Assembly (NCBI GenBank): GCA_963796275.1
Contig: CAWCKY010000004.1
Location: forward strand, 224,001-288,000
Source: an uncultured Acidobacteriota bacterium
Lineage (GTDB): Bacteria > Acidobacteriota > Blastocatellia > RBC074
Direction of reading: 5' to 3'
Length of the DNA: 64,000 nucleotides
Below the pieces are notes generated by a model that made no database searches, had not been told where the DNA came from, and worked only from the letters and a program-made list of their open reading frames with translations. A program made the translations under genes and the position numbers. Below, one piece after another: positions 17,704 to 30,437 of this stretch (the first letter of the stretch is position 1; every line of letters starts with the position of its first letter).

Positions 17704-17781
17704 ACGATGAATGTTTTCGGTTTTCAGTTTTCAGATGACCTTCAAACTTAAAACTGAGACCCGAAAGTAACGGCTCAGACG

Positions 17782-18335
17782 CTTCCCCGCGTTAGCGGCG
17801 TTTGATTGTAGCCGTGGGGGACTTCGCCCGTTAGCGGCGGTTGATTGTAGCCGTGGGCCACTTCGCCGCGTTAGCGGCGGTTGATTGTAGCCGTGGGCCA
17901 CTTCGCCCGTTAGCGGCGTTTGATTGTAGCCGTGGGGCACTTCGCCCGTTAGCCGCGGTTGATTGTAGCCGTGGGGCACTTCGCCGCGTTAGCGGCGGTT
18001 GATTGTAGCCGTGGGCCACTTCGCCGCGTTAGCGGCGGTTGATTGTAGCCGTGGGCCACTTCGCCGCGTTAGCGGCGGTTGATTGTAGCCGTGGGCCACT
18101 TCGCCGCGTTAGCGGCGGTTGATTGTAGCCGTGGGCCACTTCGCCGCGTTAGCGGCGGTTGATTGTAGCCGTGGGCCACTTCGCCGCGTTAGCGGCGGTT
18201 GATTGTAGCCGTGGGCCACTTCGCCGCGTTAGCGGCGGTTGATTGTAGCCGTGGGCCACTTCGCCGCGTTAGCGGCGGTTGATTGTAGCCGTGGGCCACT
18301 TCGCCGCGTTAGCGGCGGTTGATTGTAGCCGTGGG
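17782..18335. repeat. Tandem array of 14 units (39-40 bp) of the REPIN left end
   Basis: Consensus CTTCGCCGCGTTAGCGGCGGTTGATTGTAGCCGTGGGCCA. Units 3 and 6-13 are identical; units 1, 2, 4 and 5 are variant; unit 14 continues into the intact REP. No spacers. Confidence 0.95.
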
Positions 18336-18345
18336 TTTTAACCCA

Positions 18346-19736
18346 CTGGTATCTACACATTTCCGACGGTTAGGAATAGCCTGGCACAATGAGCCGGGCC
18401 ATCTGTTTAAGGTCATTGAGGTCATAATGTTCGAGCAATTCAAGTGTCGACAAGAAACTCCAAAACCCAGCCAACAATGCTGGTGCAGTGGGTTGCCCAC
18501 GCCGAACTTGTCGACCGCTCAATCGCACCAAGAGATTGCGCAGGGTGACCGTCTGCGGATCCGTTGCGCGTTGGATGTGCCAGACTACGACACAAGCCAT
18601 GGCCACCACCAACAAACGTTTGGCAATCGCCTCAGCAGTTTCCTGCTGCCACTGGTCGACTTGGAAACCATGGCTTTTAAGCAACTTGAAGTAAGATTCA
18701 ATTCTCCAGCGCCAGTAGTACCATTCGGCCAGTTGCTCAGCGCTGATGCCAGCCGGCACGTTACTGAGCAAGTACCATTCAGCCGCAATCGTTTCATCGG
18801 GCAAGCGCAGTTGACAGACAATCAAGCGCAGTTCGAGCGGCTCACCTTTGATCCATTGACGCTTGCCCCCGTCGCGCGCGCGGGGAAAGGCCGGACGATC
18901 AATGACGATGCTGGTTTCGCCCACAAACAGTTGCCCAATGAGATTGGCCGAAATCTCTACCGCTTGGCTAGCGCGCAAGGCGACCTGTGCTGCGACCTGG
19001 CTCAACGGTTGTGTCCGCTCCTGCCAAACAACTCTCTGTTCCCCGTTGGCACGTACTTCAAACAGATGGCCTTCACTATTCCATTGACGATAGTGAAAGA
19101 TCGAGTCGCCTTCCCGATCAATGATGTGGACCAGCGGCAACGACAGTTTTTGCTTCTGCGAAGCCCGCATTGTCTGGCTCACCAATCCCAGGGGCGACCA
19201 ATCTCTGTGCCTCTCTTCATCAAGCGTTGTGTGCCATCCATCATTGGCCCACAGCCCAAGGCTGATCGGCGCTATCGGCGCCCCGCTCTGGTCGCTCAGC
19301 AGCAACGTGGTCGCCAGTTTGTAGCCCAAGTCGCTGCCGATTTTTTTCCGATCCTTCTTGCTCGTGTGCGTTCCGTAGCGCAGATCAGACCAGTCGTGGA
19401 TCGCCAGTCCATACCGTCGACAGACAAGCGGCATCTCCCGCCGAGCTTGTTCTACCAACGGTTCGACCAGCCCCGTCAGCTTCACATTGGGGTTGGCATA
19501 AAATCGCCAGGCCGCTTGCGTGCTGGCAAACGCTTCATTAACGCTCGGCAGCGCACGCGATCCAGCAGCTTGATTCTCGCTTGTATGGAGATGTTCATTC
19601 ACCAGCCTCTCATACCGTCTTTGCAAACGGGGGTCAAATGGAGGTTTGAGGAGAAACATTCAAAGAGCATATTCTTCGGTAGGTTTGATTGCGATAACTC
19701 TTTGCAACCAAACGCAAAAACTTGTGTAGATACCAG
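18346..19736 (-). mobile_element. IS4-family (IS50/Tn5-like) IS, copy 1, 1391 bp
   Basis: IRs CTGGTATCTACACA; direct repeat TGGGTTTTAACCCA at 18332-18345 and 19737-19750. Confidence 0.95.
18370..19659 (-). CDS. IS4-family DDE transposase
   Basis: AAWRFYAN, AIHDWSD, IIDREGD, YYWRWRIESYFKLLK (YREK signature). Confidence 0.95.
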   Translation of the reverse strand: MFLLKPPFDPRLQRRYERLVNEHLHTSENQAAGSRALPSVNEAFASTQAAWRFYANPNVKLTGLVEPLVEQARREMPLVCRRYGLAIHDWSDLRYGTHTSKKDRKKIGSDLGYKLATTLLLSDQSGAPIAPISLGLWANDGWHTTLDEERHRDWSPLGLVSQTMRASQKQKLSLPLVHIIDREGDSIFHYRQWNSEGHLFEVRANGEQRVVWQERTQPLSQVAAQVALRASQAVEISANLIGQLFVGETSIVIDRPAFPRARDGGKRQWIKGEPLELRLIVCQLRLPDETIAAEWYLLSNVPAGISAEQLAEWYYWRWRIESYFKLLKSHGFQVDQWQQETAEAIAKRLLVVAMACVVVWHIQRATDPQTVTLRNLLVRLSGRQVRRGQPTAPALLAGFWSFLSTLELLEHYDLNDLKQMARLIVPGYS

Positions 19737-19856
19737 TGGGTTTTAACCCACGGTAGTAGTACGAAATTCTACCGCGTCGCGTCAGCGACGGTTGAATTCA
19801 AGCGTCGCTGACGCGACGCGGGAATATACTTCAAGCCTTCCGTGGGTTAAAACCCA

Positions 19857-21247
19857 CTGGTATCTACACATTTCCGACGGTTAGGAATAGCCTGGCACAA
19901 TGAGCCGGGCCATCTGTTTAAGGTCATTGAGGTCATAATGTTCGAGCAATTCAAGTGTCGACAAGAAACTCCAAAACCCAGCCAACAATGCTGGTGCAGT
20001 GGGTTGCCCACGCCGAACTTGTCGACCGCTCAATCGCACCAAGAGATTGCGCAGGGTGACCGTCTGCGGATCCGTTGCGCGTTGGATGTGCCAGACTACG
20101 ACACAAGCCATGGCCACCACCAACAAACGTTTGGCAATCGCCTCAGCAGTTTCCTGCTGCCACTGGTCGACTTGGAAACCATGGCTTTTAAGCAACTTGA
20201 AGTAAGATTCAATTCTCCAGCGCCAGTAGTACCATTCGGCCAGTTGCTCAGCGCTGATGCCAGCCGGCACGTTACTGAGCAAGTACCATTCAGCCGCAAT
20301 CGTTTCATCGGGCAAGCGCAGTTGACAGACAATCAAGCGCAGTTCGAGCGGCTCACCTTTGATCCATTGACGCTTGCCCCCGTCGCGCGCGCGGGGAAAG
20401 GCCGGACGATCAATGACGATGCTGGTTTCGCCCACAAACAGTTGCCCAATGAGATTGGCCGAAATCTCTACCGCTTGGCTAGCGCGCAAGGCGACCTGTG
20501 CTGCGACCTGGCTCAACGGTTGTGTCCGCTCCTGCCAAACAACTCTCTGTTCCCCGTTGGCACGTACTTCAAACAGATGGCCTTCACTATTCCATTGACG
20601 ATAGTGAAAGATCGAGTCGCCTTCCCGATCAATGATGTGGACCAGCGGCAACGACAGTTTTTGCTTCTGCGAAGCCCGCATTGTCTGGCTCACCAATCCC
20701 AGGGGCGACCAATCTCTGTGCCTCTCTTCATCAAGCGTTGTGTGCCATCCATCATTGGCCCACAGCCCAAGGCTGATCGGCGCTATCGGCGCCCCGCTCT
20801 GGTCGCTCAGCAGCAACGTGGTCGCCAGTTTGTAGCCCAAGTCGCTGCCGATTTTTTTCCGATCCTTCTTGCTCGTGTGCGTTCCGTAGCGCAGATCAGA
20901 CCAGTCGTGGATCGCCAGTCCATACCGTCGACAGACAAGCGGCATCTCCCGCCGAGCTTGTTCTACCAACGGTTCGACCAGCCCCGTCAGCTTCACATTG
21001 GGGTTGGCATAAAATCGCCAGGCCGCTTGCGTGCTGGCAAACGCTTCATTAACGCTCGGCAGCGCACGCGATCCAGCAGCTTGATTCTCGCTTGTATGGA
21101 GATGTTCATTCACCAGCCTCTCATACCGTCTTTGCAAACGGGGGTCAAATGGAGGTTTGAGGAGAAACATTCAAAGAGCATATTCTTCGGTAGGTTTGAT
21201 TGCGATAACTCTTTGCAACCAAACGCAAAAACTTGTGTAGATACCAG
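19857..21247 (-). mobile_element. IS4-family IS, copy 2, 1391 bp
   Basis: Same IRs; direct repeat TGGGTTAAAACCCA at 19843-19856 and 21248-21261. Confidence 0.95.
19881..21170 (-). CDS. IS4-family DDE transposase (protein identical to copy 1)
   Basis: Identical 429-aa translation. Confidence 0.95.
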   Translation of the reverse strand: MFLLKPPFDPRLQRRYERLVNEHLHTSENQAAGSRALPSVNEAFASTQAAWRFYANPNVKLTGLVEPLVEQARREMPLVCRRYGLAIHDWSDLRYGTHTSKKDRKKIGSDLGYKLATTLLLSDQSGAPIAPISLGLWANDGWHTTLDEERHRDWSPLGLVSQTMRASQKQKLSLPLVHIIDREGDSIFHYRQWNSEGHLFEVRANGEQRVVWQERTQPLSQVAAQVALRASQAVEISANLIGQLFVGETSIVIDRPAFPRARDGGKRQWIKGEPLELRLIVCQLRLPDETIAAEWYLLSNVPAGISAEQLAEWYYWRWRIESYFKLLKSHGFQVDQWQQETAEAIAKRLLVVAMACVVVWHIQRATDPQTVTLRNLLVRLSGRQVRRGQPTAPALLAGFWSFLSTLELLEHYDLNDLKQMARLIVPGYS

Positions 21248-21414
21248 TGGGTTAAAACCCACGGCTACAATCAACCGCCGCTAACGCGGCGAAGCGTATG
21301 AGCGATGAGATCGGAAAAGTTGACAGACTGACTGGTGAATCGTCCGCGCCGCGACGCATTCGCCTTTCTGTCACAACTGAAACCCATTTTTTGAGGAGCA
21401 CACGAGGAGCACAC

Positions 21415-22290
21415 ATGGAAATGCATGATGAATTAAAAGGCCTGTTCCCACCGGCGCCGGAGGTAACACGCCGCACATTTGTAGTCACGTCTTTATCGGC
21501 AGGTTTCGCGCTCGCCGTCCAGCCGATTCAAGCGCAGAGCATCATTACGACTGATAACAACGGTCTGACAGAAGGTGAAGTGAAAATACCAGTTAAGGGA
21601 GGCGAGGTTCCGGCTTATAGGGCCGCGCCAACAAGAGGCAGAAACTTCCCGACCGTTCTGGTGGTACAAGAGATATTCGGCGTCCACGAACACATTAAGG
21701 ATATCTGCCGACGGTTTGCCAAGCTCGGCTATCTGGCCATCGCTCCGGAGATGTATGCGCGGCAGGGCGATGTATCGAAAATGACCAACATCAATGAAAT
21801 CATCCAGAAGGTCGTCTCAAAAGTACCGGATGATCAAGTTATAGCGGATATTGATGCGACGGTGGCCTGGGCCAAGAAGAACAACGGTGATACCGATAAG
21901 CTCGCCATCACCGGCTTCTGCTGGGGCGGCCGCACCGTCTGGCTCTATGCCGCACACAATCCCAAACTGAAAGCAGGCGTCGCCTGGTACGGTCGGATCG
22001 TCGGCACCACAGATGAGCTGCATCCGAAGAACCCGATAGATGTAGTCAAGGACCTGAAAGCTCCGGTACTCGGACTTTATGGTGGAGCTGATCAAGGTAT
22101 CCCCAATGAAACCGTCGAACAAATGCAGAAGGCGCTGAAAGACGCGGGCAAACCATCTGAGATCAAGCTCTATCCCGATACGCCTCATGGGTTCCACGCC
22201 GATTACCGCCCGAGCTATAGAAAGGAACAAGCGCAGGATGGCTGGAAGCTTTTGCTCGAATGGTTCAATAAGAATGGAGTCGCCGTTTAG
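21415..22290 (+). CDS. Dienelactone hydrolase family protein
   Basis: [22 protein letters not shown]; TRRTF twin-Arg-like motif; GAGGAG RBS before ATG 21415. Confidence 0.92.
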
Positions 22291-22295
22291 GTGAC

Positions 22296-22397
22296 TTTTG
22301 ATTTTAGATTGCGAATTGCGGATTGCAGATTTAAGGTTAATTTAGCAATATTTGGTTTTTGCAAACCACCAATCGGCATTCCGCAATTCGCAATCAA
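22296..22397. repeat. 7-nt-period (GATTGCG/CGCAATC) inverted-repeat spacer
   Basis: GATTGCGAATTGCGGATTGC...CATTCCGCAATTCGCAATC. Confidence 0.6.
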
Positions 22398-22400
22398 ATT

Positions 22401-23222
22401 ATGGCCTACGCACACAAAATCACCGGCGCGCATCCGATAAAACTCAATGACTTCGATCCGGAAGATGACGGAGGACTCGATCGCGTAGTAGGCGAGGAGA
22501 AACTCAAAACTCTGGGTAAGGAGCTGACGCGCCTGCAGGAACTGCTCTACGCCGCTAGCGATAATTCGGTCCTTATAGTGCTGCAGGGGCGCGATACGAG
22601 CGGGAAAGACGGGACTATCAGAGCGGTGATGGGGCCGCTCAACTCGCTCGGCTGCACGGTGGCGTCTTTCAAGGTTCCTACGGAAAAAGAGCTCGCACAT
22701 GATTTCCTCTGGCGCATTCATCAACACACGCCGGCGCGCGGAGAGATCGCGATCTTCAACCGCTCGCATTACGAAGATGTGCTCGCCGTGCGCGTTCAAA
22801 AAATAGTGCCCGACAAAATCTGGCGAGCGCGTTTCGATCACATCAACAACTTTGAAAGACTTTTAACCGACAGCAACACGATCCTTCTCAAGTTCTATCT
22901 TCATATCAGCAAGAAAGAACAGGAGGAACGTCTGCTCGCGCGGGAACAGGAACCCGAGAAATACTGGAAGCTATCGGTCGGCGATTGGAAGGAACGCGAG
23001 AATTGGAACGATTATACGCGCGCCTACGAAGACGCGATCAACCGCTGCAGTACGCCATCTGCCCCGTGGCATATCGTGCCTGCCAACAAAAAGTGGTTCC
23101 GCAACCTGGCCGTAGCTGAAGCCATAGTGAACGCCCTCAGATCGTTACAGAATGGTTGGCGGCGAAAACTCGAGGCAATCGGTAAAAAAGAAAAAGCGGC
23201 AATCGAAGCGTACAGAAGTCAG

Positions 23223-23243
<21 letters not shown>
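22401..23243 (+). CDS. ppk2: Polyphosphate kinase 2 family (class III-like)
   Basis: [36 protein letters not shown]. Confidence 0.92.
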
Positions 23244-24017
<774 letters not shown>

Positions 24018-24296
24018 CGTTCAGGGGAAATACAGAGGGAAAAGAATAAGGTAAAAAGTCGCAATCAAAACCTTTATCAGTTATGCGGCTCTGCCCCACC
24101 CAAGGAGCAAATCTAGTACCATGGGTAGAGCGGAGCGCAAACTCAAAGACGCATCATCAACCAAGCATCAAGCTCCCCAAAGAGCGTAACCGTAAAACGC
24201 CCGATTTATTGCGCCTTACATGATCGACGCTCTTTCGACACTCGGCTCGCGCGCAATTCGCCCCGACCAATCCACGCGGGCCGATTTAGGCATGAC

Positions 24297-25843
24297 TTAT
24301 AAGACCGGCCCAATCCGCCACGGGACGAATTCCTGGTGACCAAGCATTTCGCTTTTAGTTCTTTCACCAGATGCGGTGCGGCGGATCAATTCAAAAATCT
24401 TTCTTCCGACTTCCGGTATCGTCGATTTGCCATCGACGATAGTGCCGGCGTTGACGTCGATATTGTCATCCATCATTCGGGCGATGCGAGAATTCGATGA
24501 TATCTTTATCACCGGTACGACCGGAAAGCCGATGCCCGAGCCTCTGCCAGTCGTAAAGCAGATAATATTCGCTCCGCCTGCCGCGATTCCCGTCAGCGAG
24601 ACCGGATCATACCCCGGCGTATTCATCAGCACGAATCCGCTGCGATTAATGCGTTCGGCATAGGTGAAGACGCCGGTCAGCGCGGTTGTTCCGCCTTTCG
24701 CTACAGCGCCCAGCGATTTTTCCGTGATATTCGAAATACCCCCGGCCTTGTTTCCCGGGGATGGATTGTCATCCCATCCGCCACCGAAGCGCTCGAGATA
24801 TTTCCGGTACCATTCGACAATGTCGATCACTTTTCGACCCGTCGCCACGTCAGCCGCGCGGCGCGTGAGCAGGTGCTCCGCTCCCACGCATTCGGGTATT
24901 TCGGCAAGCACCGATGTTCCCCGGACCGCACCAACAGATCACTGGCGTAGCCAAGCGATGGATTGGCTGAGATTCCGGAGAACGCATCCGAGCCGCCGCA
25001 GTTCGTTCCGAGCAGAACCTTGCTCAACGGTTGCGCCGTGCGTTTCAGCTGCTGGCAATGTTTGATCAACTCTTCAACCTGTGCGACTCCATTGGCGACT
25101 GTCTGGCGCGTCCCCCCGCTCGATTGCATTTCGAGTCCGACGATCAATTTGCCTTTGCGAAACGATTGCTGCCCTAACTGCGTCGTGCCGATATATTTGG
25201 AAATCTGGTTGACCTCGCATCCCAAACTCACCATGAGGACGGCCCCCACGTTCGGATGAAAGATCATCCCGGCAATGGTTCTTTCAAGCTGCCAGGTGTC
25301 TTCGCCCTGTGAATGTCCACAACCTTCCTGGTGCGGGATGGCAACCACACCATCGATGCCGTGCGTATCGGGCCCCACGTCCCGCAGTTGATAAGCGATC
25401 TGACTTGCAACGTGGCTCGAACAGTTGGATGTCGCAATCACCGCAATGTAATTGCGCGTACCGACATCGCCATTCTCGCGCAAATAACCCATAAATGTAC
25501 CCGCATCTTCGGGAGCGAAGAATTCGGTCGCCGGCGTATCCGTCGCATATTCGTACTCCTTGCCGGAGAAATCCGGCTGCAAATTGTGTGTGTGAACCCA
25601 TTCGCCGGGGGCGATATCTTTGGTGGCCGTTCCGATGGTTTCGCCATACTTGACGATCTTTCCCCCTCCGGCTATCGGGCGCAACGCTATTTTGTGTCCG
25701 GGAGTGATTGTTTCGCGCAAACCTATCTTCGATCCGAAGGCAAGGATTTCGGTTCCGCCTGAAACCGGCGCGCGCGCGACGCCTACATTATCCTTTTCAT
25801 TCAGAATAATTATGGGGCTAACATCCTCATTGACGGGATTCAT
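24297..25843 (-). CDS. uxaA: UxaA/GarD-family dehydratase with SAF domain, split by a frameshift near 24921
   Basis: [38 protein letters not shown]. One extra G in the GGGG run restores VRSGGTSVLAE. Confidence 0.85.
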
Positions 25844-26034
25844 TTATGCTCCTCTACAAAGTAGACAGGTTTGTCAGGATTTAGTGATCGAGGTTAATCT
25901 TGAATATCCTGGGAATCCTGCCCGAATTTTAATCGTATTCAGTGGTCCGTCCGTGACCGCTTGTCCGATATATCCAAATTCTACTGAATGGAAGGAGACT
26001 AAGTAAAATGCGCGTGCGGATTCTGATCGAAAAG

Positions 26035-26080
26035 AAAAAACGCCTCCGAATTGCTTATTCGCTTTCCGGAGGCGTTTTTT
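26035..26080 (-). terminator. Intrinsic terminator lying between divergent genes
   Basis: AAAAAACGCCTCCG...CGGAGGCGTTTTTT; the minus-strand reading adds a G-U pair and a longer U tract (TTTTTTCTTTT). Confidence 0.8.
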
Positions 26081-26315
26081 CGCTGAGGACGCTTTACTCT
26101 GGTCGATTTATTTTTATTTCATAAATGCAGCACCAGAGGTGATGAAACCCTATCTAATGTCTGCTGGCCGAGTAATCCCCTAATGGCTTTTTCCGTCATT
26201 CACTGGCTGTTACCCTAATGGCTGAGCACTTGCTTGCTAGTCCTCATCACCTCTGATCTGCAACTGTTTGAATCGATCTCAATAACTCATTTTTTGAATT
26301 TCTTCTCCCTATATC
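26035..26315 (-). ncRNA. Candidate sigma54-dependent structured small RNA or leader
   Basis: Promoter-like motif upstream, long closing stem (26126-26145 with 26244-26262), repeated CATTAG motif, terminator, no long ORF. Confidence 0.45.
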
Positions 26316-26325
26316 GATACTAAAT

Positions 26326-26342
26326 ATCAATCTTCGTGCCGG
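26326..26342 (-). promoter_or_regulatory. Putative sigma54 -24/-12 promoter
   Basis: CCGGCACGAAGATTGAT versus consensus TGGCACG-N4-TTGC; exact GG-N10-G spacing, GA instead of GC at -12; divergent from a bEBP gene. Confidence 0.5.
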
Positions 26343-26554
26343 AGAGTATATGTTTTGAGGCGCCGTGCGGTTGAGGTGAGAGAACAAGTTGACTAATATG
26401 GGGTTAGCGCTAAGGGAATCATTGTCAAAACCTGAATCGGGATACATTTGAAGGGCGTGAATTGTCGCAATCAAATTTGATTGCAGCTATCAATATTGAT
26501 TATCTACTATCAATTTTGATATCGGCCAAATATCCGGGAGGGGGAAATCATCCG

Positions 26555-28543
26555 ATGAACTCAGAGAAGAATCCTTCTTTACCAAAGCTCATCTCCATCT
26601 CCGGCCCATCAGAAGGCTCCATCTTTGTGCTAATCGGGGATCAGACCCCGATCGGACGGGACCCGTCCAACTCGATCTGTATCGCCGATCCCCTGCTCTC
26701 ACGACGGCACTGCAGCCTTTTGAAGAAAGGCGAGGATGTGAGCATCGCCGACACCGGCAGCGCGAACGGGACATTTGTCAACGGAGTGCCTATTACGGAA
26801 CGCGCGCTGGTGCACCGCGACGTGATTAAAGCCGGAGATTCATTATTGCTCTTCATCAGCTACGAAGAAGAAGAAGACTCATCACATACCGATAACACCG
26901 TTCAACTCAATGACGATCCGCTGATCACGAAAGCGACGATCATCCTGCGTCAGGAAGAAGGCTTCTATCTGAATGAGCAGGGAGCGCTGCCCTTGACCGA
27001 ACGGACGACCCAAAACTTCCAGGCGCTTTTACGGATCGGCATCGAGATCAACACGATTCGCGACCTGCAGACTCTGCAGAAGAGACTGCTCGAGTTGATC
27101 TTCTCAGTGGTGCCCGCGGAACACGGCGCAATACTCTTATCCGATGATCAGGAAGGAGAGGTAAGATCGAGCTTCGGTTGGTCGCGAACGGAGCAAGATC
27201 AACAGACGGTGATCGCCAGCCGCACCATTCTGCAGACAGTTTTGCGCGACGGGGTTGCGATACTTCGCAATGATGTAGCGGAAGATGCCGCTCTCCAGAT
27301 ATCGAAAACCCTGGTCCGCTCGGGAGTCCGGTCGATTCTCGCGGTGCCGCTCTCTTATTTCCGGGATACTTTTGGAGTGATCTATCTGGACACAACAAAC
27401 CCGGCCGACAGTTTTGACGAGGAGCACCTGCAACTAGTCACAGCGGTTGCCAATCTGGCCGCGGTCGCATTGCAGAATGCGCAGCATCTGGAACAGTTGA
27501 ATAACGAAACGAAGCGGCTGCAGGCCGAGCTCAATTTCGACCGGGAAATGGTCGGCGAGAGCCCGCGGATGCAGGAGGTCCGTCAGTTGATCGCTAAAAT
27601 CGCGCCGACCGCCTCGACCGTCCTCATCTGCGGGGAGAGCGGTACCGGCAAGGAGCTCGTCGCGCGAGCGATTCACCTCAACAGCCCGCGGGCCAACAAA
27701 CCATTCATTGCCATCAACTGTGCAGTCTTGAATGATACCCTGCTCGAGAGCGAGCTTTTCGGCCACGAAAAAGGCTCCTTTACCGGCGCCATAGCGCAAA
27801 AGAAGGGAAAGCTCGAGATGGCCCAGGGCGGCACCGTATTTTTGGATGAAGTCGGTGAAATGTCTCCTGCGCTCCAGGCCAAGCTTTTGCGCGTTCTGCA
27901 GGAGCGGGAGATCGAACGCGTCGGCGGCACCCGTCCGATCAAACTCGACATCCGACTCATTGCAGCCACCAACAAGGACGTAGAGGTCGCTATCAGGAAC
28001 GGAGAATTTCGCACCGACCTTTACTTCAGGCTCAAAGTCTTCGAAATACCGATGCCACCCCTGCGCGAACGTCGCACTGACATCTCGCTTCTCGCCAGTT
28101 ACTTCGCCAACAAGTTCGGAGCCAAATGCGGTCGACAATTCAAAGGGATTTCCCACGCGGCGCGCACCTGTCTGAAGCATTACGATTGGCCGGGCAATGT
28201 GCGAGAACTCGAGAATGCTATAGAACGAGCCGTAGTTATGAGTACGACCGAATTCATCCTGCCCGATGATCTGCCCGACGAGGTGATCGAAGCCGATTCC
28301 TCATCATCGGCTCATATAAGATCGGCTCAACCCGATGTGGGGGCTCAGACGCTGCCCGTCACCATCGGATCTGTAATGAACTATCACGAGGGGATGATCG
28401 AGGCGAAGCGGCAGCTCATCGTCAAGGCATTCGACCAGGCCAAGGGCAATCACTTCGAGGCGGCAAAATTGTTGGGGCTACATCCGAACAATCTTCATCG
28501 TACGATCCGCAACCTCAACCTCAAATCACAGTTGAAGAAATGA
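26555..28543 (+). CDS. Sigma54 enhancer-binding protein, FHA-GAF-AAA+-HTH
   Basis: FHA ([18 protein letters not shown]), [37 protein letters not shown]-terminal HTH. Confidence 0.95.
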
Positions 28544-28547
28544 AAAT

Positions 28548-28722
28548 TAGTTTTCAGTTTTCAGTTTGATAGCTAAAAACTAAAACCTAAAACTGATAAC
28601 TGATAATTAAAAACTAAAAACGGCTTTGTTGCATAAATCGTAAATGAATATTTTCAGTTGACAGTTGATAGTTTTCAGTCGCTGATCGAAATAGCTCAGC
28701 AAAAACTAAAAACTGAAATTAA
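28548..28722. repeat. AGTTTTC/AAAACTG heptamer inverted-repeat hairpins
   Basis: Two nested-arm hairpins; the same family occurs at 17712-17760, 30332-30420 and 46711-46905. Confidence 0.7.
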
Positions 28723-28883
28723 CTACTCACCCTCTTCGCCGCGTTAGCGGCGGTTGATTGTAGCCGTGGGTTTTAACCCAAGGTGGCGGTAGATTTTTTC
28801 TCGTCGCGTCAGCGACGATTGAATTCAGGCGTCGCTAACGCGACGCGGGAATATCCTTCAAGCCTTCCGTGGGTTAAAACCCA

Positions 28884-30274
28884 CTGGTATCTACACAAGT
28901 TTTTGCGTTTGGTTGCAAAGAGTTATCGCAATCAAACCTACCGAAGAATATGCTCTTTGAATGTTTCTCCTCAAACCTCCATTTGACCCCCGTTTGCAAA
29001 GACGGTATGAGAGGCTGGTGAATGAACATCTCCATACAAGCGAGAATCAAGCTGCTGGATCGCGTGCGCTGCCGAGCGTTAATGAAGCGTTTGCCAGCAC
29101 GCAAGCGGCCTGGCGATTTTATGCCAACCCCAATGTGAAGCTGACGGGGCTGGTCGAACCGTTGGTAGAACAAGCTCGGCGGGAGATGCCGCTTGTCTGT
29201 CGACGGTATGGACTGGCGATCCACGACTGGTCTGATCTGCGCTACGGAACGCACACGAGCAAGAAGGATCGGAAAAAAATCGGCAGCGACTTGGGCTACA
29301 AACTGGCGACCACGTTGCTGCTGAGCGACCAGAGCGGGGCGCCGATAGCGCCGATCAGCCTTGGGCTGTGGGCCAATGATGGATGGCACACAACGCTTGA
29401 TGAAGAGAGGCACAGAGATTGGTCGCCCCTGGGATTGGTGAGCCAGACAATGCGGGCTTCGCAGAAGCAAAAACTGTCGTTGCCGCTGGTCCACATCATT
29501 GATCGGGAAGGCGACTCGATCTTTCACTATCGTCAATGGAATAGTGAAGGCCATCTGTTTGAAGTACGTGCCAACGGGGAACAGAGAGTTGTTTGGCAGG
29601 AGCGGACACAACCGTTGAGCCAGGTCGCAGCACAGGTCGCCTTGCGCGCTAGCCAAGCGGTAGAGATTTCGGCCAATCTCATTGGGCAACTGTTTGTGGG
29701 CGAAACCAGCGTCGTCATTGATCGTCCGGCCTTTCCCCGCGCGCGCGATGGGGGCAAGCGTCAATGGATCAAAGGTGAGCCGCTCGAACTGCGCTTGATT
29801 GTCTGTCAACTGCGCTTGCCCGATGAAACGATTGCGGCTGAATGGTACTTGCTCAGTAACGTGCCGGCTGGCATCAGCGCTGAGCAACTGGCCGAATGGT
29901 ACTACTGGCGCTGGAGAATTGAATCTTACTTCAAGTTGCTTAAAAGGCATGGTTTCCAAGTCGACCAGTGGCAGCAGGAAACTGCTGAGGCGATTGCCAA
30001 ACGTTTGTTGGTGGCGGCCATGGCTTGTGTCGTAGTCTGGCACATCCAACGCGCAACGAATCCGCAGACGGTCACCCTGCGCAATCTCTTGGTGCGATTG
30101 AGCGGTCGACAAGTTCGGCGTGGGCAACCCACTGCACCAGCATTGTTGGCTGGGTTTTGGAGTTTCTTGTCGACACTTGAATTGCTCGAACATTATGACC
30201 TCAATGACCTTAAACAGATGGCCCGGCTCATTGTGCCAGGCTATTCCTGACCGTCGGAAATGTGTAGATACCAG
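28884..30274 (+). mobile_element. IS4-family IS, copy 3, 1391 bp, opposite orientation
   Basis: Same IRs; direct repeat TGGGTTAAAACCCA at 28870-28883 and 30275-30288. Confidence 0.95.
28961..30250 (+). CDS. IS4-family DDE transposase (4 aa differences from copies 1 and 2)
   Basis: I>V, S>R, V>A and D>N substitutions; TGA versus TAA stop. Confidence 0.95.
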   Translation: MFLLKPPFDPRLQRRYERLVNEHLHTSENQAAGSRALPSVNEAFASTQAAWRFYANPNVKLTGLVEPLVEQARREMPLVCRRYGLAIHDWSDLRYGTHTSKKDRKKIGSDLGYKLATTLLLSDQSGAPIAPISLGLWANDGWHTTLDEERHRDWSPLGLVSQTMRASQKQKLSLPLVHIIDREGDSIFHYRQWNSEGHLFEVRANGEQRVVWQERTQPLSQVAAQVALRASQAVEISANLIGQLFVGETSVVIDRPAFPRARDGGKRQWIKGEPLELRLIVCQLRLPDETIAAEWYLLSNVPAGISAEQLAEWYYWRWRIESYFKLLKRHGFQVDQWQQETAEAIAKRLLVAAMACVVVWHIQRATNPQTVTLRNLLVRLSGRQVRRGQPTAPALLAGFWSFLSTLELLEHYDLNDLKQMARLIVPGYS

Positions 30275-30437
30275 TGGGTTAAAACCCACGGCTACAATCA
30301 ACCGCCGCTAACGCGGCGAAGAGCATATATAGAGTTTTCAGTTTTCAGATGCCGATTTAGACTATCCAACAGAAACTTGAAACTGAAAACTGAAAACTGA
30401 TAACTGATAACTGAAAACCATTTCCCCAGGAGGACTA

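Follow-up and report, generated by a model that had tools for sequence, protein, structure and literature searches.

Insertion sequences (IS) that target repetitive extragenic palindromic (REP) elements have been published for five IS families, IS4 included (PMC1525189). Within that family, ISRm22 of Sinorhizobium meliloti (subgroup IS4Sa) was reported in 2006 to insert at the axis of the REP palindrome, with all copies in REP elements and some hybrid repeats ascribed to recombination (PMC1525189), and its target arms are described as conserved (PMC2266710). Here we present an IS found in three copies in a stretch of 64,000 nucleotides (G000:C4:224001-288000, from here on the window) of the host genome G000, which comprises 9.46 Mb in 7 contigs, is 94.7% complete and belongs, judging by its relatives, to Acidobacteriota/Blastocatellia. 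By description it is like ISRm22, being an IS4-family element inserted at the axis of a palindromic REP consensus, but it differs in host phylum, in REP family and in the length of the direct repeats (6 bp in ISRm22 vs 10 bp here); in a plasmid search Sinorhizobium appeared among the weak matches only. The publication of ISRm22 weakens the novelty that an earlier note on this DNA had seen in REP targeting. Already known are REP targeting by the IS4 family, the palindromic targets of Tn5 and IS231A, and ends that restore a palindromic target; new here are a set of putative excision scars, one copy with a 112-bp repeat on either side, and the targeting of other REP families by distant relatives.

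Two other IS4-like systems are close in different respects. IS50/Tn5 is the sole relative of solved structure by both profile and fold, with aligned DDE and YREK residues, the same letters at end positions 1, 9 and 11-19, and a 9-bp duplication like that of our copy in a non-REP site. It differs in its 5'-CT ends (5'-CA here), in an identity of only 17% in the structural alignment, in the length of its chains in the PDB (477-481 aa vs 429 aa), and in a weak site preference where we see a near-absolute choice, with 10 bp duplicated in REPs. IS231A duplicates (11 bp) a palindromic target, GGG-N5-CCC (PMC2577343 Table 1), and its family has 5'-CA(T) ends (PMC2266710). It is likened to the present element by target and ends, but it belongs to a different subgroup (Firmicutes), and its target is a consensus and no REP. 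IS1397 and ISKpn1 (IS3 family), ISPpu9, ISPpu10 and IS621 (IS110 family) are also REP-specific (PMC1525189). These IS3 and IS110 elements differ in chemistry and recognition from the Tn5-fold enzyme with its 10-bp duplication described here. IS3 elements use circle intermediates and have 3-bp repeats, and IS110 elements use a bridge-RNA-guided DEDD recombinase, with repeats of 0-2 bp.

In G000 there are 13 full-length copies, 99.1-100% identical and differing at only 19 alignment columns, and 12 of them lie at one and the same nucleotide of a REP hairpin, CCGTG-GGTTNNAACC-CACGG, that is associated with a REP-associated tyrosine transposase (RAYT) gene. The thirteenth, at C3:1145083-1146475, is in a non-REP site. 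The REP unit measures about 50 bp ('arm' plus hairpin), and its 107 arms form 44 clusters, in which they are mostly paired in inverted orientation ('><') at a distance of 146 bp, or of 1551-1554 bp when occupied. The best of 9 matches to the Y1 transposase profile (PF01797) is an intact open reading frame (ORF) at C4:611677-612021, flanked by 4+4 REP arms. The target family is thus GC-rich and palindromic, mostly arranged in inverted pairs and flanked by a RAYT-type gene, as in REP/REPIN-RAYT systems (REPIN, a REP doublet forming a hairpin), and with 12 of 13 copies breaking the REP at the same position it corresponds to the type 1 association of Tobes and Pareja (2006). The strong REP targeting claimed in the earlier note is borne out in this way, and of the observations named there as contrary to it, copies at random sites or with 9-bp duplications, genome-wide mapping gives a single one, the non-REP copy, which has 9 bp. 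The exact 14-mer around the apex occurs 88 times in the genome against about 0.6 expected by our arithmetic; 23 of these adjoin an IS end and 65 are empty, and 53 perfect 20-bp hairpins have been left empty, so the hairpins are not saturated. All 12 insertions in GGTTNNAACC are of the REP type, yet 193 of the 258 empty GGTTNNAACC sites are non-REP, which by our arithmetic gives (77/270)^12, or about 3e-7; recognition must therefore reach beyond the 10-mer. The orientation of the IS relative to the REP arm is split 4 vs 5 in the nine copies with one recognisable arm, as predicted by a symmetric target.

The best explanation as a whole, which we consider likely from these comparisons, is a REP-apex-targeting IS of the IS4 family with a 10-bp stagger and cut-and-paste movement. 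A two-fold symmetric complex of transposase and IS ends would bind the palindromic hairpin apex and cut the strands 10 bp apart (9 bp at the non-REP look-alike site), so that the inner 10 bp would be duplicated; the terminal letters of the IS, CAC and GTG, would then rebuild the hairpin stem at both junctions, and the repeat would look 14-16 bp long. Movement would most likely be by cut-and-paste, the two 10-mers being rejoined on departure with 0 or 1 added letter. The analysis throughout is a static comparison of sequences; copies, flanks, empty sites, fold, motifs, the REP-RAYT link and the scar-like sites were read from it, and the dimer symmetry, the cut-and-paste movement and the repair route are what we infer. 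Since REPs are intergenic, insertions there would have harmless landing places. A strong site choice by a Tn5-fold enzyme would also be of relevance to transposase engineering.

The window holds three of the copies in two REPIN loci, both intergenic, one between genes for an M28 peptidase and a dienelactone hydrolase and the other between those for a sigma-54 activator and an AMP-binding enzyme. By the borders of the earlier note (CTGG...CCAG) they lie at 18346-19736 (-), 19857-21247 (-) and 28884-30274 (+), 1391 bp each, with ends CTGGTATCTACACA...TGTGTAGATACCAG and the same 14 letters on either side (TGGGTTTTAACCCA, or the AA form) within CCG...CGG. The borders adopted here (CA...TG, 1395 bp, see below) extend these by two letters per end and give the following features:

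17782..18335, + strand: 40-bp unit repeated 13.9 times in tandem and made up of a REP arm and an apex-less hairpin stump (CCGTGGGCCA), the last unit running into the occupied hairpin h1
18334..18343, no strand: left 10-bp target duplication of copy 1, GGTTTTAACC, with the stem CCGTG at 18329-18333
18344..19738, - strand: IS copy 1, 1395 bp, ends CACTGG...CCAGTG, transposase ORF at 18370-19659 (-), 429 aa
19739..19748, no strand: right 10-bp duplication of copy 1, GGTTTTAACC
19749..19844, no strand: REPIN middle between the occupied hairpins h1 and h2, with CACGG, a GAATTC-centred inner palindrome and CCGTG, compared with an empty REPIN
19845..19854, no strand: left 10-bp duplication of copy 2, GGTTAAAACC
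19855..21249, - strand: IS copy 2, 1395 bp, transposase ORF at 19881-21170 (-)
21250..21294, - strand: right 10-bp duplication of copy 2 (21250-21259), stem, and inverted REP arm (21258-21294)
28734..28783, + strand: REP arm (28734-28770) and empty hairpin h1 (28764-28783), with one stem mismatch, CCCAAGG
28784..28871, no strand: middle of the second REPIN, ending with the stem CCGTG at 28867-28871
28872..28881, no strand: left 10-bp duplication of copy 3, GGTTAAAACC
28882..30276, + strand: IS copy 3, 1395 bp, transposase ORF at 28961-30250 (+), P0001, 429 aa
30277..30321, - strand: right 10-bp duplication of copy 3 (30277-30286), stem CACGG, and inverted REP arm (30285-30321)

The three copies, their positions, their length by the earlier borders and their identical flanks are all present in the sequence as first described. 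The hairpin centre is TT on both sides at copy 1 and AA on both sides at copies 2 and 3, which are oppositely oriented, so that the asymmetric centre does follow something other than the orientation of the IS, as had been noted; genome-wide the loop letters (TT, AA or TC) are the same on both sides in 11 of the 12 REP copies. The hairpin therefore belongs to the target, and the idea that it forms part of the IS as an extended inverted repeat was rejected on the same ground. The remark that three of four arms are occupied and that the empty one carries a mismatch is correct for the window but does not extend to the genome, where 53 perfect hairpins are empty; occupancy of arm-adjacent hairpins is 9/54 for perfect and 0/10 for one-mismatch cases (Fisher p = 0.33), and a protective role of the stem mismatch, not being significant, was set aside. 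Copies 1 and 2 are identical in sequence, and the distinct flanks and the arm spacing argue against a duplication made by the assembly. In Logan contigs of four soil sequencing runs the best match, of 1423 bp, was a collapsed IS with 16 nt of hairpin on its flanks, and the 120-bp spacer between the two copies was bridged by none of the contigs of these runs. The 40-bp array abuts copy 1, and arm arrays of other periods (73/84, 180 and 244 bp) occur elsewhere in G000, also beside RAYT genes. A/T-rich, microsatellite-like repeats of 6-7 bp (CTAAAAA, AACTGA(A)) border the intergenic REPINs at 28567-28621 and 30368-30418, and also at 17720-17760. An antisense open frame of 475 aa spans the whole IS (18319-19746 on the + strand, 28874-30301 on the - strand); as it shares the codon register of the transposase, it is most likely a shadow frame and no gene.

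Each element encodes one ORF of 429 aa, without frameshift, with the catalytic residues D89, D181 and E321 and the YREK residues Y314, R317, E321 and K328, the latter four being invariant or nearly so in 37 homologues. A profile built from these homologues had Tn5 transposase as its sole hit in the sequences of the PDB (E 2e-10), and the DDE and YREK blocks and the region of the AYRF..NP motif were aligned in this match; the profile was needed, as a search of the same sequences with the single protein gave a chance match to a peroxiredoxin only. In a Foldseek search with an AlphaFold model (pLDDT, the predicted local distance difference test, 83) the six best matches were all to Tn5 transposase or its inhibitor (E 3e-16 to 1e-10, template modelling (TM) scores 0.51-0.59), so profile, model and structural search agree with the DDE/YREK motifs and the likeness to Tn5 proposed in the earlier note. 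The IS4 family is defined by DDE and the Y-(2)-R-(3)-E-(6)-K signature (De Palmenaer 2008, PMC2266710), and its norm is 5'-CA ends and duplications of about 10 bp (PMC2266710). The present element has the DDE/YREK residues, a single ORF with short terminal inverted repeats, and a duplication of about 10 bp with CA...TG ends. Its 5'-CA ends, by the borders adopted here, do not fit the IS50 subgroup, which is marked by 5'-CT extremities (PMC2266710), and it is for this reason filed under the IS4 family only. Among the profiles, Pfam DDE_Tnp_1 scored 27.3 bits (cut-off 23), the Tn5 N-terminal domain PF14706 scored 16.7 bits, below its cut-off of 24, and no match to the Tn5 dimerisation domain was listed in the Pfam search. 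A point against the family placement is that the best NCBIfam IS4 model scored 99.7 bits, below its cut-off of 160. We conclude that the element is an IS4-family IS with a DDE/YREK transposase of predicted Tn5 fold.

As the target is palindromic, every even duplication length up to 14-16 bp is compatible with the REP copies taken by themselves, and it is other evidence that fixes the border. The copy at the non-REP site reads ...CCGTAGGTAAGAGC-CA[CTGG...CCAG]TG-GGTAAGAGCTATGG..., with borders at ...TAGGTAAGAGC / CA-IS-TG / GGTAAGAGCTA..., and if taken as a 13-bp 'repeat' it shows two mismatches, placed as mirror images. In G001, a genome of the same genus without the IS, the empty orthologous site reads ...GCCGCAGATAAGAACTATGAAC... 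and equals the IS-distal letter at both discriminating positions, so that CA and TG travel with the IS and the non-REP duplication is the exact 9-mer GGTAAGAGC. Relatives at non-palindromic or partly palindromic sites show the same geometry, with four letters outside a GGTATC anchor followed by a 9-bp repeat: L057 (GGCGAAGCC), L069 (CTTGGCAAG) and L006/L007 (GCTAACCAT), where the adjacent letters are unable to be an inverted repeat. On a finished plasmid of Citrobacter, an element with 36% identity (L104) has CATA...TATG with the exact 9-bp repeat CCCAAGATG, and in L046, in which the right terminus is GATA instead of AGTG, the repeat is limited to GGTTTCAACC(CA), 10-12 letters. With the CA included, no gap is needed to align the transposase-proximal 19-nt end, CACTGGTATCTACACAAGT, with the Tn5 outside end (19-bp sequence in PMC2566895), positions 1, 9 and 11-19 being identical, which bears out the resemblance noted earlier. 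The termini are then 5'-CACTGGTATCTACACA...TGTGTAGATACCAGTG-3', with an inverted repeat perfect over 16 bp and 17/19 overall. The same border is favoured by the 5'-CA ends and duplications of about 10 bp usual in the IS4 family (PMC2266710) and by the scar-like sites described below. With these borders, 10 of the 13 copies have an exact 10-bp repeat, one has 9 bp, one 112 bp and one an extra junction letter. Judging from these flanks, an IS of 1395 bp with CA...TG ends duplicates 10 bp of its target in REPs and 9 bp at its single non-REP site, and the apparent repeat of 14-16 letters arises because the termini CAC/GTG equal the next letters of the stem. The Drosophila P element behaves similarly: a staggered cut falls inside a longer palindromic motif, and the terminal 3 letters of the inverted repeat restore that motif (Linheiro and Bergman 2008, PMC2577343), which blurs the border between end and target, the same effect as behind the 14-bp reading, although this element is eukaryotic, with an unrelated transposase, an 8-bp duplication in a 14-bp motif, and a degenerate motif instead of a repeat family. 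A palindromic target with matching ends can thus inflate an apparent duplication (from 10 to 14-16 bp), and empty sites, relatives and scars settle its length. As side observations, in C3:262267-263657 a single additional letter, C, separates the IS end CCAGTG from the right 10-mer, and in the 88%-identical relative L046 a second IS-like end (CAGTGATATCTACACA) follows directly after the right 10-mer (L046:1709-1745), which suggests two elements abutting in one hairpin.

Several points weigh against these borders. They are unreadable from the REP copies alone, the genome that provides the empty site has an identity of no more than 80-85% there, the stagger varies (10 bp at REP sites vs 9 bp at the non-REP site), and many relatives in metagenome contigs and metagenome-assembled genomes (MAGs) have inverted flanks or lack any repeat. 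As G is the first and C the last letter of most informative 9-mers, ends of one more letter, CCACTGG...CCAGTGG, with 8 bp duplicated in REPs and 7 bp elsewhere and one IS letter per end left on excision, would also be possible; the letter beside CA/TG is compatible with such an inverted repeat in G000, L057 and L104, and in the scar-like sites described below CC-(N)-GG might represent terminal letters that stayed behind. We regard these longer ends as improbable, given that the adjacent letters are T and G, no inverted repeat, in L006/L007, where the exact repeat is 9 bp, and G and C rather than C and G in L069, that the conserved block would be displaced by one relative to the Tn5 end, and that 7-8 bp is below the usual range given for the family (PMC2266710). 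The model of the earlier note, in which an IS of 1391 bp (CTGG...CCAG) makes a true 14-bp target duplication, TGGGTTNNAACCCA, with a longer stagger, draws on the 14 letters that all 12 REP copies carry on both sides and on an end that would start with CTG as in Tn5, 5'-CT being the signature of the IS50 subgroup (PMC2266710). It is scarcely credible in view of the two mirror mismatches of the non-REP copy, at both of which the empty site sides with the IS-distal letter, of the 9-10 bp with four IS letters outside the anchor in L046, L006/L007, L057, L069 and L104, of the scar-like sites, all 17 of which keep 10-mers with none of the 14-bp type in G000, and of the 2-letter gap required to align its end with that of Tn5. 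The outer TG and CA come once from the stem and once from the IS, and only the inner 10 of the 14 letters would be duplicated; the statement that the repeats are true target duplications and not extended inverted repeats stands for the hairpin, which belongs to the target, and falls for the outer four letters.

The putative scars are 17 sites in G000 that read GGTTNNAACC, 0-1 letter, GGTTNNAACC (e.g. C4:806786, C6:1015224, C6:2503145 and C7:609974-610606), 15 of them between ...GTG and CACGG in REP hairpins, that is, at the position where the IS inserts. Read on the + strand, the filler is t at 6 sites, a at 4, and g and c at one each, while 5 sites have no filler; five control palindromic motifs gave no doubled pairs. 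The 17 sites amount to 14 distinct flank pairs, so some of them have been copied along with REP arrays. We think it quite likely, from their structure and position, that these doubled 10-mers are excision scars of the IS. The hairpin mechanism of Tn5 leaves blunt donor ends, and a rejoining with 0-1 added letter would fit this. If they are scars, G000 would preserve in nature something seldom seen, the traces left where a bacterial IS was excised by cut-and-paste and its donor sites were repaired. Of one target there would be 53 copies untouched, 12 occupied and at least 12 scarred, on which donor repair and the dynamics of REPs as 'safe harbours' could be tested directly. The genomes G001, G002, G003 and G018, with 0, 0, 6 and 1 REP hairpins, have no scars, these hairpins being too few for a control. 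One scar-like site, C4:612691, lies near the intact RAYT-type gene C4:611677-612021.

One copy, C6:1405046-1406440, the only one with AA/TT loop letters, has an exact 112-bp direct repeat on both flanks, which opens with the complete h1 10-mer of one REPIN and closes with its complete h2 10-mer, the limits being the cut positions in the two hairpins; a 10-mer-a-10-mer scar-like site lies in the h2 just to its right. The shortest account would be one insertion with its ends in both hairpins (a 112-bp stagger) and then a visit and excision at h2; an alternative would be an unequal exchange between two copies arranged as in the first locus of the window, followed by two losses. Recombination between two different REPIN loci was rejected for this copy, the flanks being an exact local repeat. 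Long direct repeats, of 8-514 bp, are known for IS1634 and IS1549 (PMC2266710). The likeness is limited to this 1 of 13 copies, and a hairpin-to-hairpin repeat could also come from recombination and excision.

For the choice of site, the consensus of Tn5, A-GNTYWRANC-T (as cited in PMC8224930; PMC2577343 Table 1), provides a reference. The half-sites GGTT/AACC fit the GNTY/RANC of this weak consensus with one extra central base pair, and the non-REP site A-GGTAAGAGC-T fits it at 10 of 11 positions. That site is also an imperfect hairpin, CCGTAG-GTAAGAG-CTATGG, which has CCGT.GGT in common with the REP.

The same data could be read in other ways. Recognition of a DNA structure, such as an extruded hairpin or cruciform or a bendable apex, instead of base sequence is possible but doubtful: relatives sit on the apexes of unrelated hairpins (a GG-N5-CC apex in CCGGTGG...CCACCGG, CACTGGT-CGA-ACCAGTG, and others) and the non-REP site is itself an imperfect hairpin, but the CCGT.GGT that this site shares with the REP makes a sequence reading equally good, and a relative in G034 inserts at the foot of a hairpin, not at its apex, with a non-palindromic 8-bp duplication. 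Survivorship, by which a weak Tn5-like preference would be followed by retention of harmless REP insertions alone, would agree with the intergenic position of REPs and with the weak consensus of Tn5 (PMC8224930); with 12 of 12 REP copies at the same nucleotide of one REP family and in both orientations, 0 copies in the 193 other GGTTNNAACC sites, the putative scars likewise in the REP hairpin, and 4 of 4 copies of the distant G034 relative at one position of another REP family, it is most improbable. As for the scar-like sites, they might be REP variants made by another process, such as apex slippage or RAYT activity, and the IS might never excise. What speaks for this, and weighs against excision, is that Ku was not found with PF02735 or TIGR02772 in G000, where a LigD-like gene (region C6:240598-241332) alone was found, so that the repair route of the putative scars is unexplained, that G034 has no such site for its relative, that some sites were plainly copied with REP arrays, and that scars of this kind were absent from the papers listed by one literature search. 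We nevertheless hold such an origin to be unlikely, because the doubled unit is exactly the 10-mer that was independently taken to be the duplication, the varied fillers indicate separate events, the control motifs gave no pairs, 15 of 17 sites are at the insertion position in the hairpin, and one site shares a REPIN with an IS copy.

Within the host's family, 9 of 87 genomes match the transposase at E <= 1e-60, with more than two matches in G000 only, and a wider genome search in this family gave no further loci. Soil metagenomes are rich in homologues, with 2387 proteins at E <= 1e-10 among 8000 candidates scored, and 40 metagenome loci with homologues were collected. Most of these relatives lie, by eye, in GC-rich palindromes of several unrelated families. 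In G034 (40 contigs), all four copies of a relative with an identity of 38-46% occupy a single position of another REPIN family, each with the exact 8-bp repeat GCGCAGGC; the motif of that family is present in 111 copies vs 1 for the control. We tentatively consider that there may be a clade of Tn5-fold transposases in soil Acidobacteriota with a near-absolute target choice matched to the REP family of the host, be it the hairpin apex in G000, other hairpins in relatives or another REPIN position in G034, with one half-site per protomer (which would explain the 112-bp copy), and clean excision resealed with 0-1 letter without Ku. If so, the enzyme of this clade would be a natural site-specific Tn5 and the scars a bacterial equivalent of the footprints of eukaryotic transposons. 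Nine loci, from MAGs and soil metagenome contigs (L002, L005, L047, L048, L050, L051, L062, L063 and L068), have inverted flanks of 17-40 nt and no direct repeat, and about a dozen more have no flanking repeat at all; in short-read assemblies of a multicopy IS such flanks may be chimeric joins, and the inverted ones may otherwise be due to a real rearrangement. Loop flipping was rejected as their cause for G000 (0 of 75 arm-adjacent loops flipped), and so were long flanking repeats as a general cause, since 27 relative loci showed none apart from the repeats of 9-10 bp. L005, which has inverted flanks, is a unique and degenerate copy and not easily explained as a chimeric join. Two copies in G029 (44% identity) show no clear duplication, and in the Acinetobacter plasmid relative L105 the ends were not identified.

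Some minor observations concern the remains of these elements and their targets. The REPIN family of G034 (e.g. L101:1480-1600), with about 111 half-sites, folds into a long hairpin of -104 kcal/mol. At C4 minus-strand position 205618 (cluster near C4:1435400-1435800) a REP hairpin is followed by CATTGGTATTTAC..., which resembles the decayed remnant of an isolated end from a related IS that has, like L001, ends of the TTGG type. A second Y1 match, C6:308723-308959, has a stop codon inside and lies 224 bp from the IS copy C6:307109-308499, and C1:494761-496154 is a broken copy of the IS, in which a 2-letter insertion splits the transposase ORF into residues 1-376 and 373-429.

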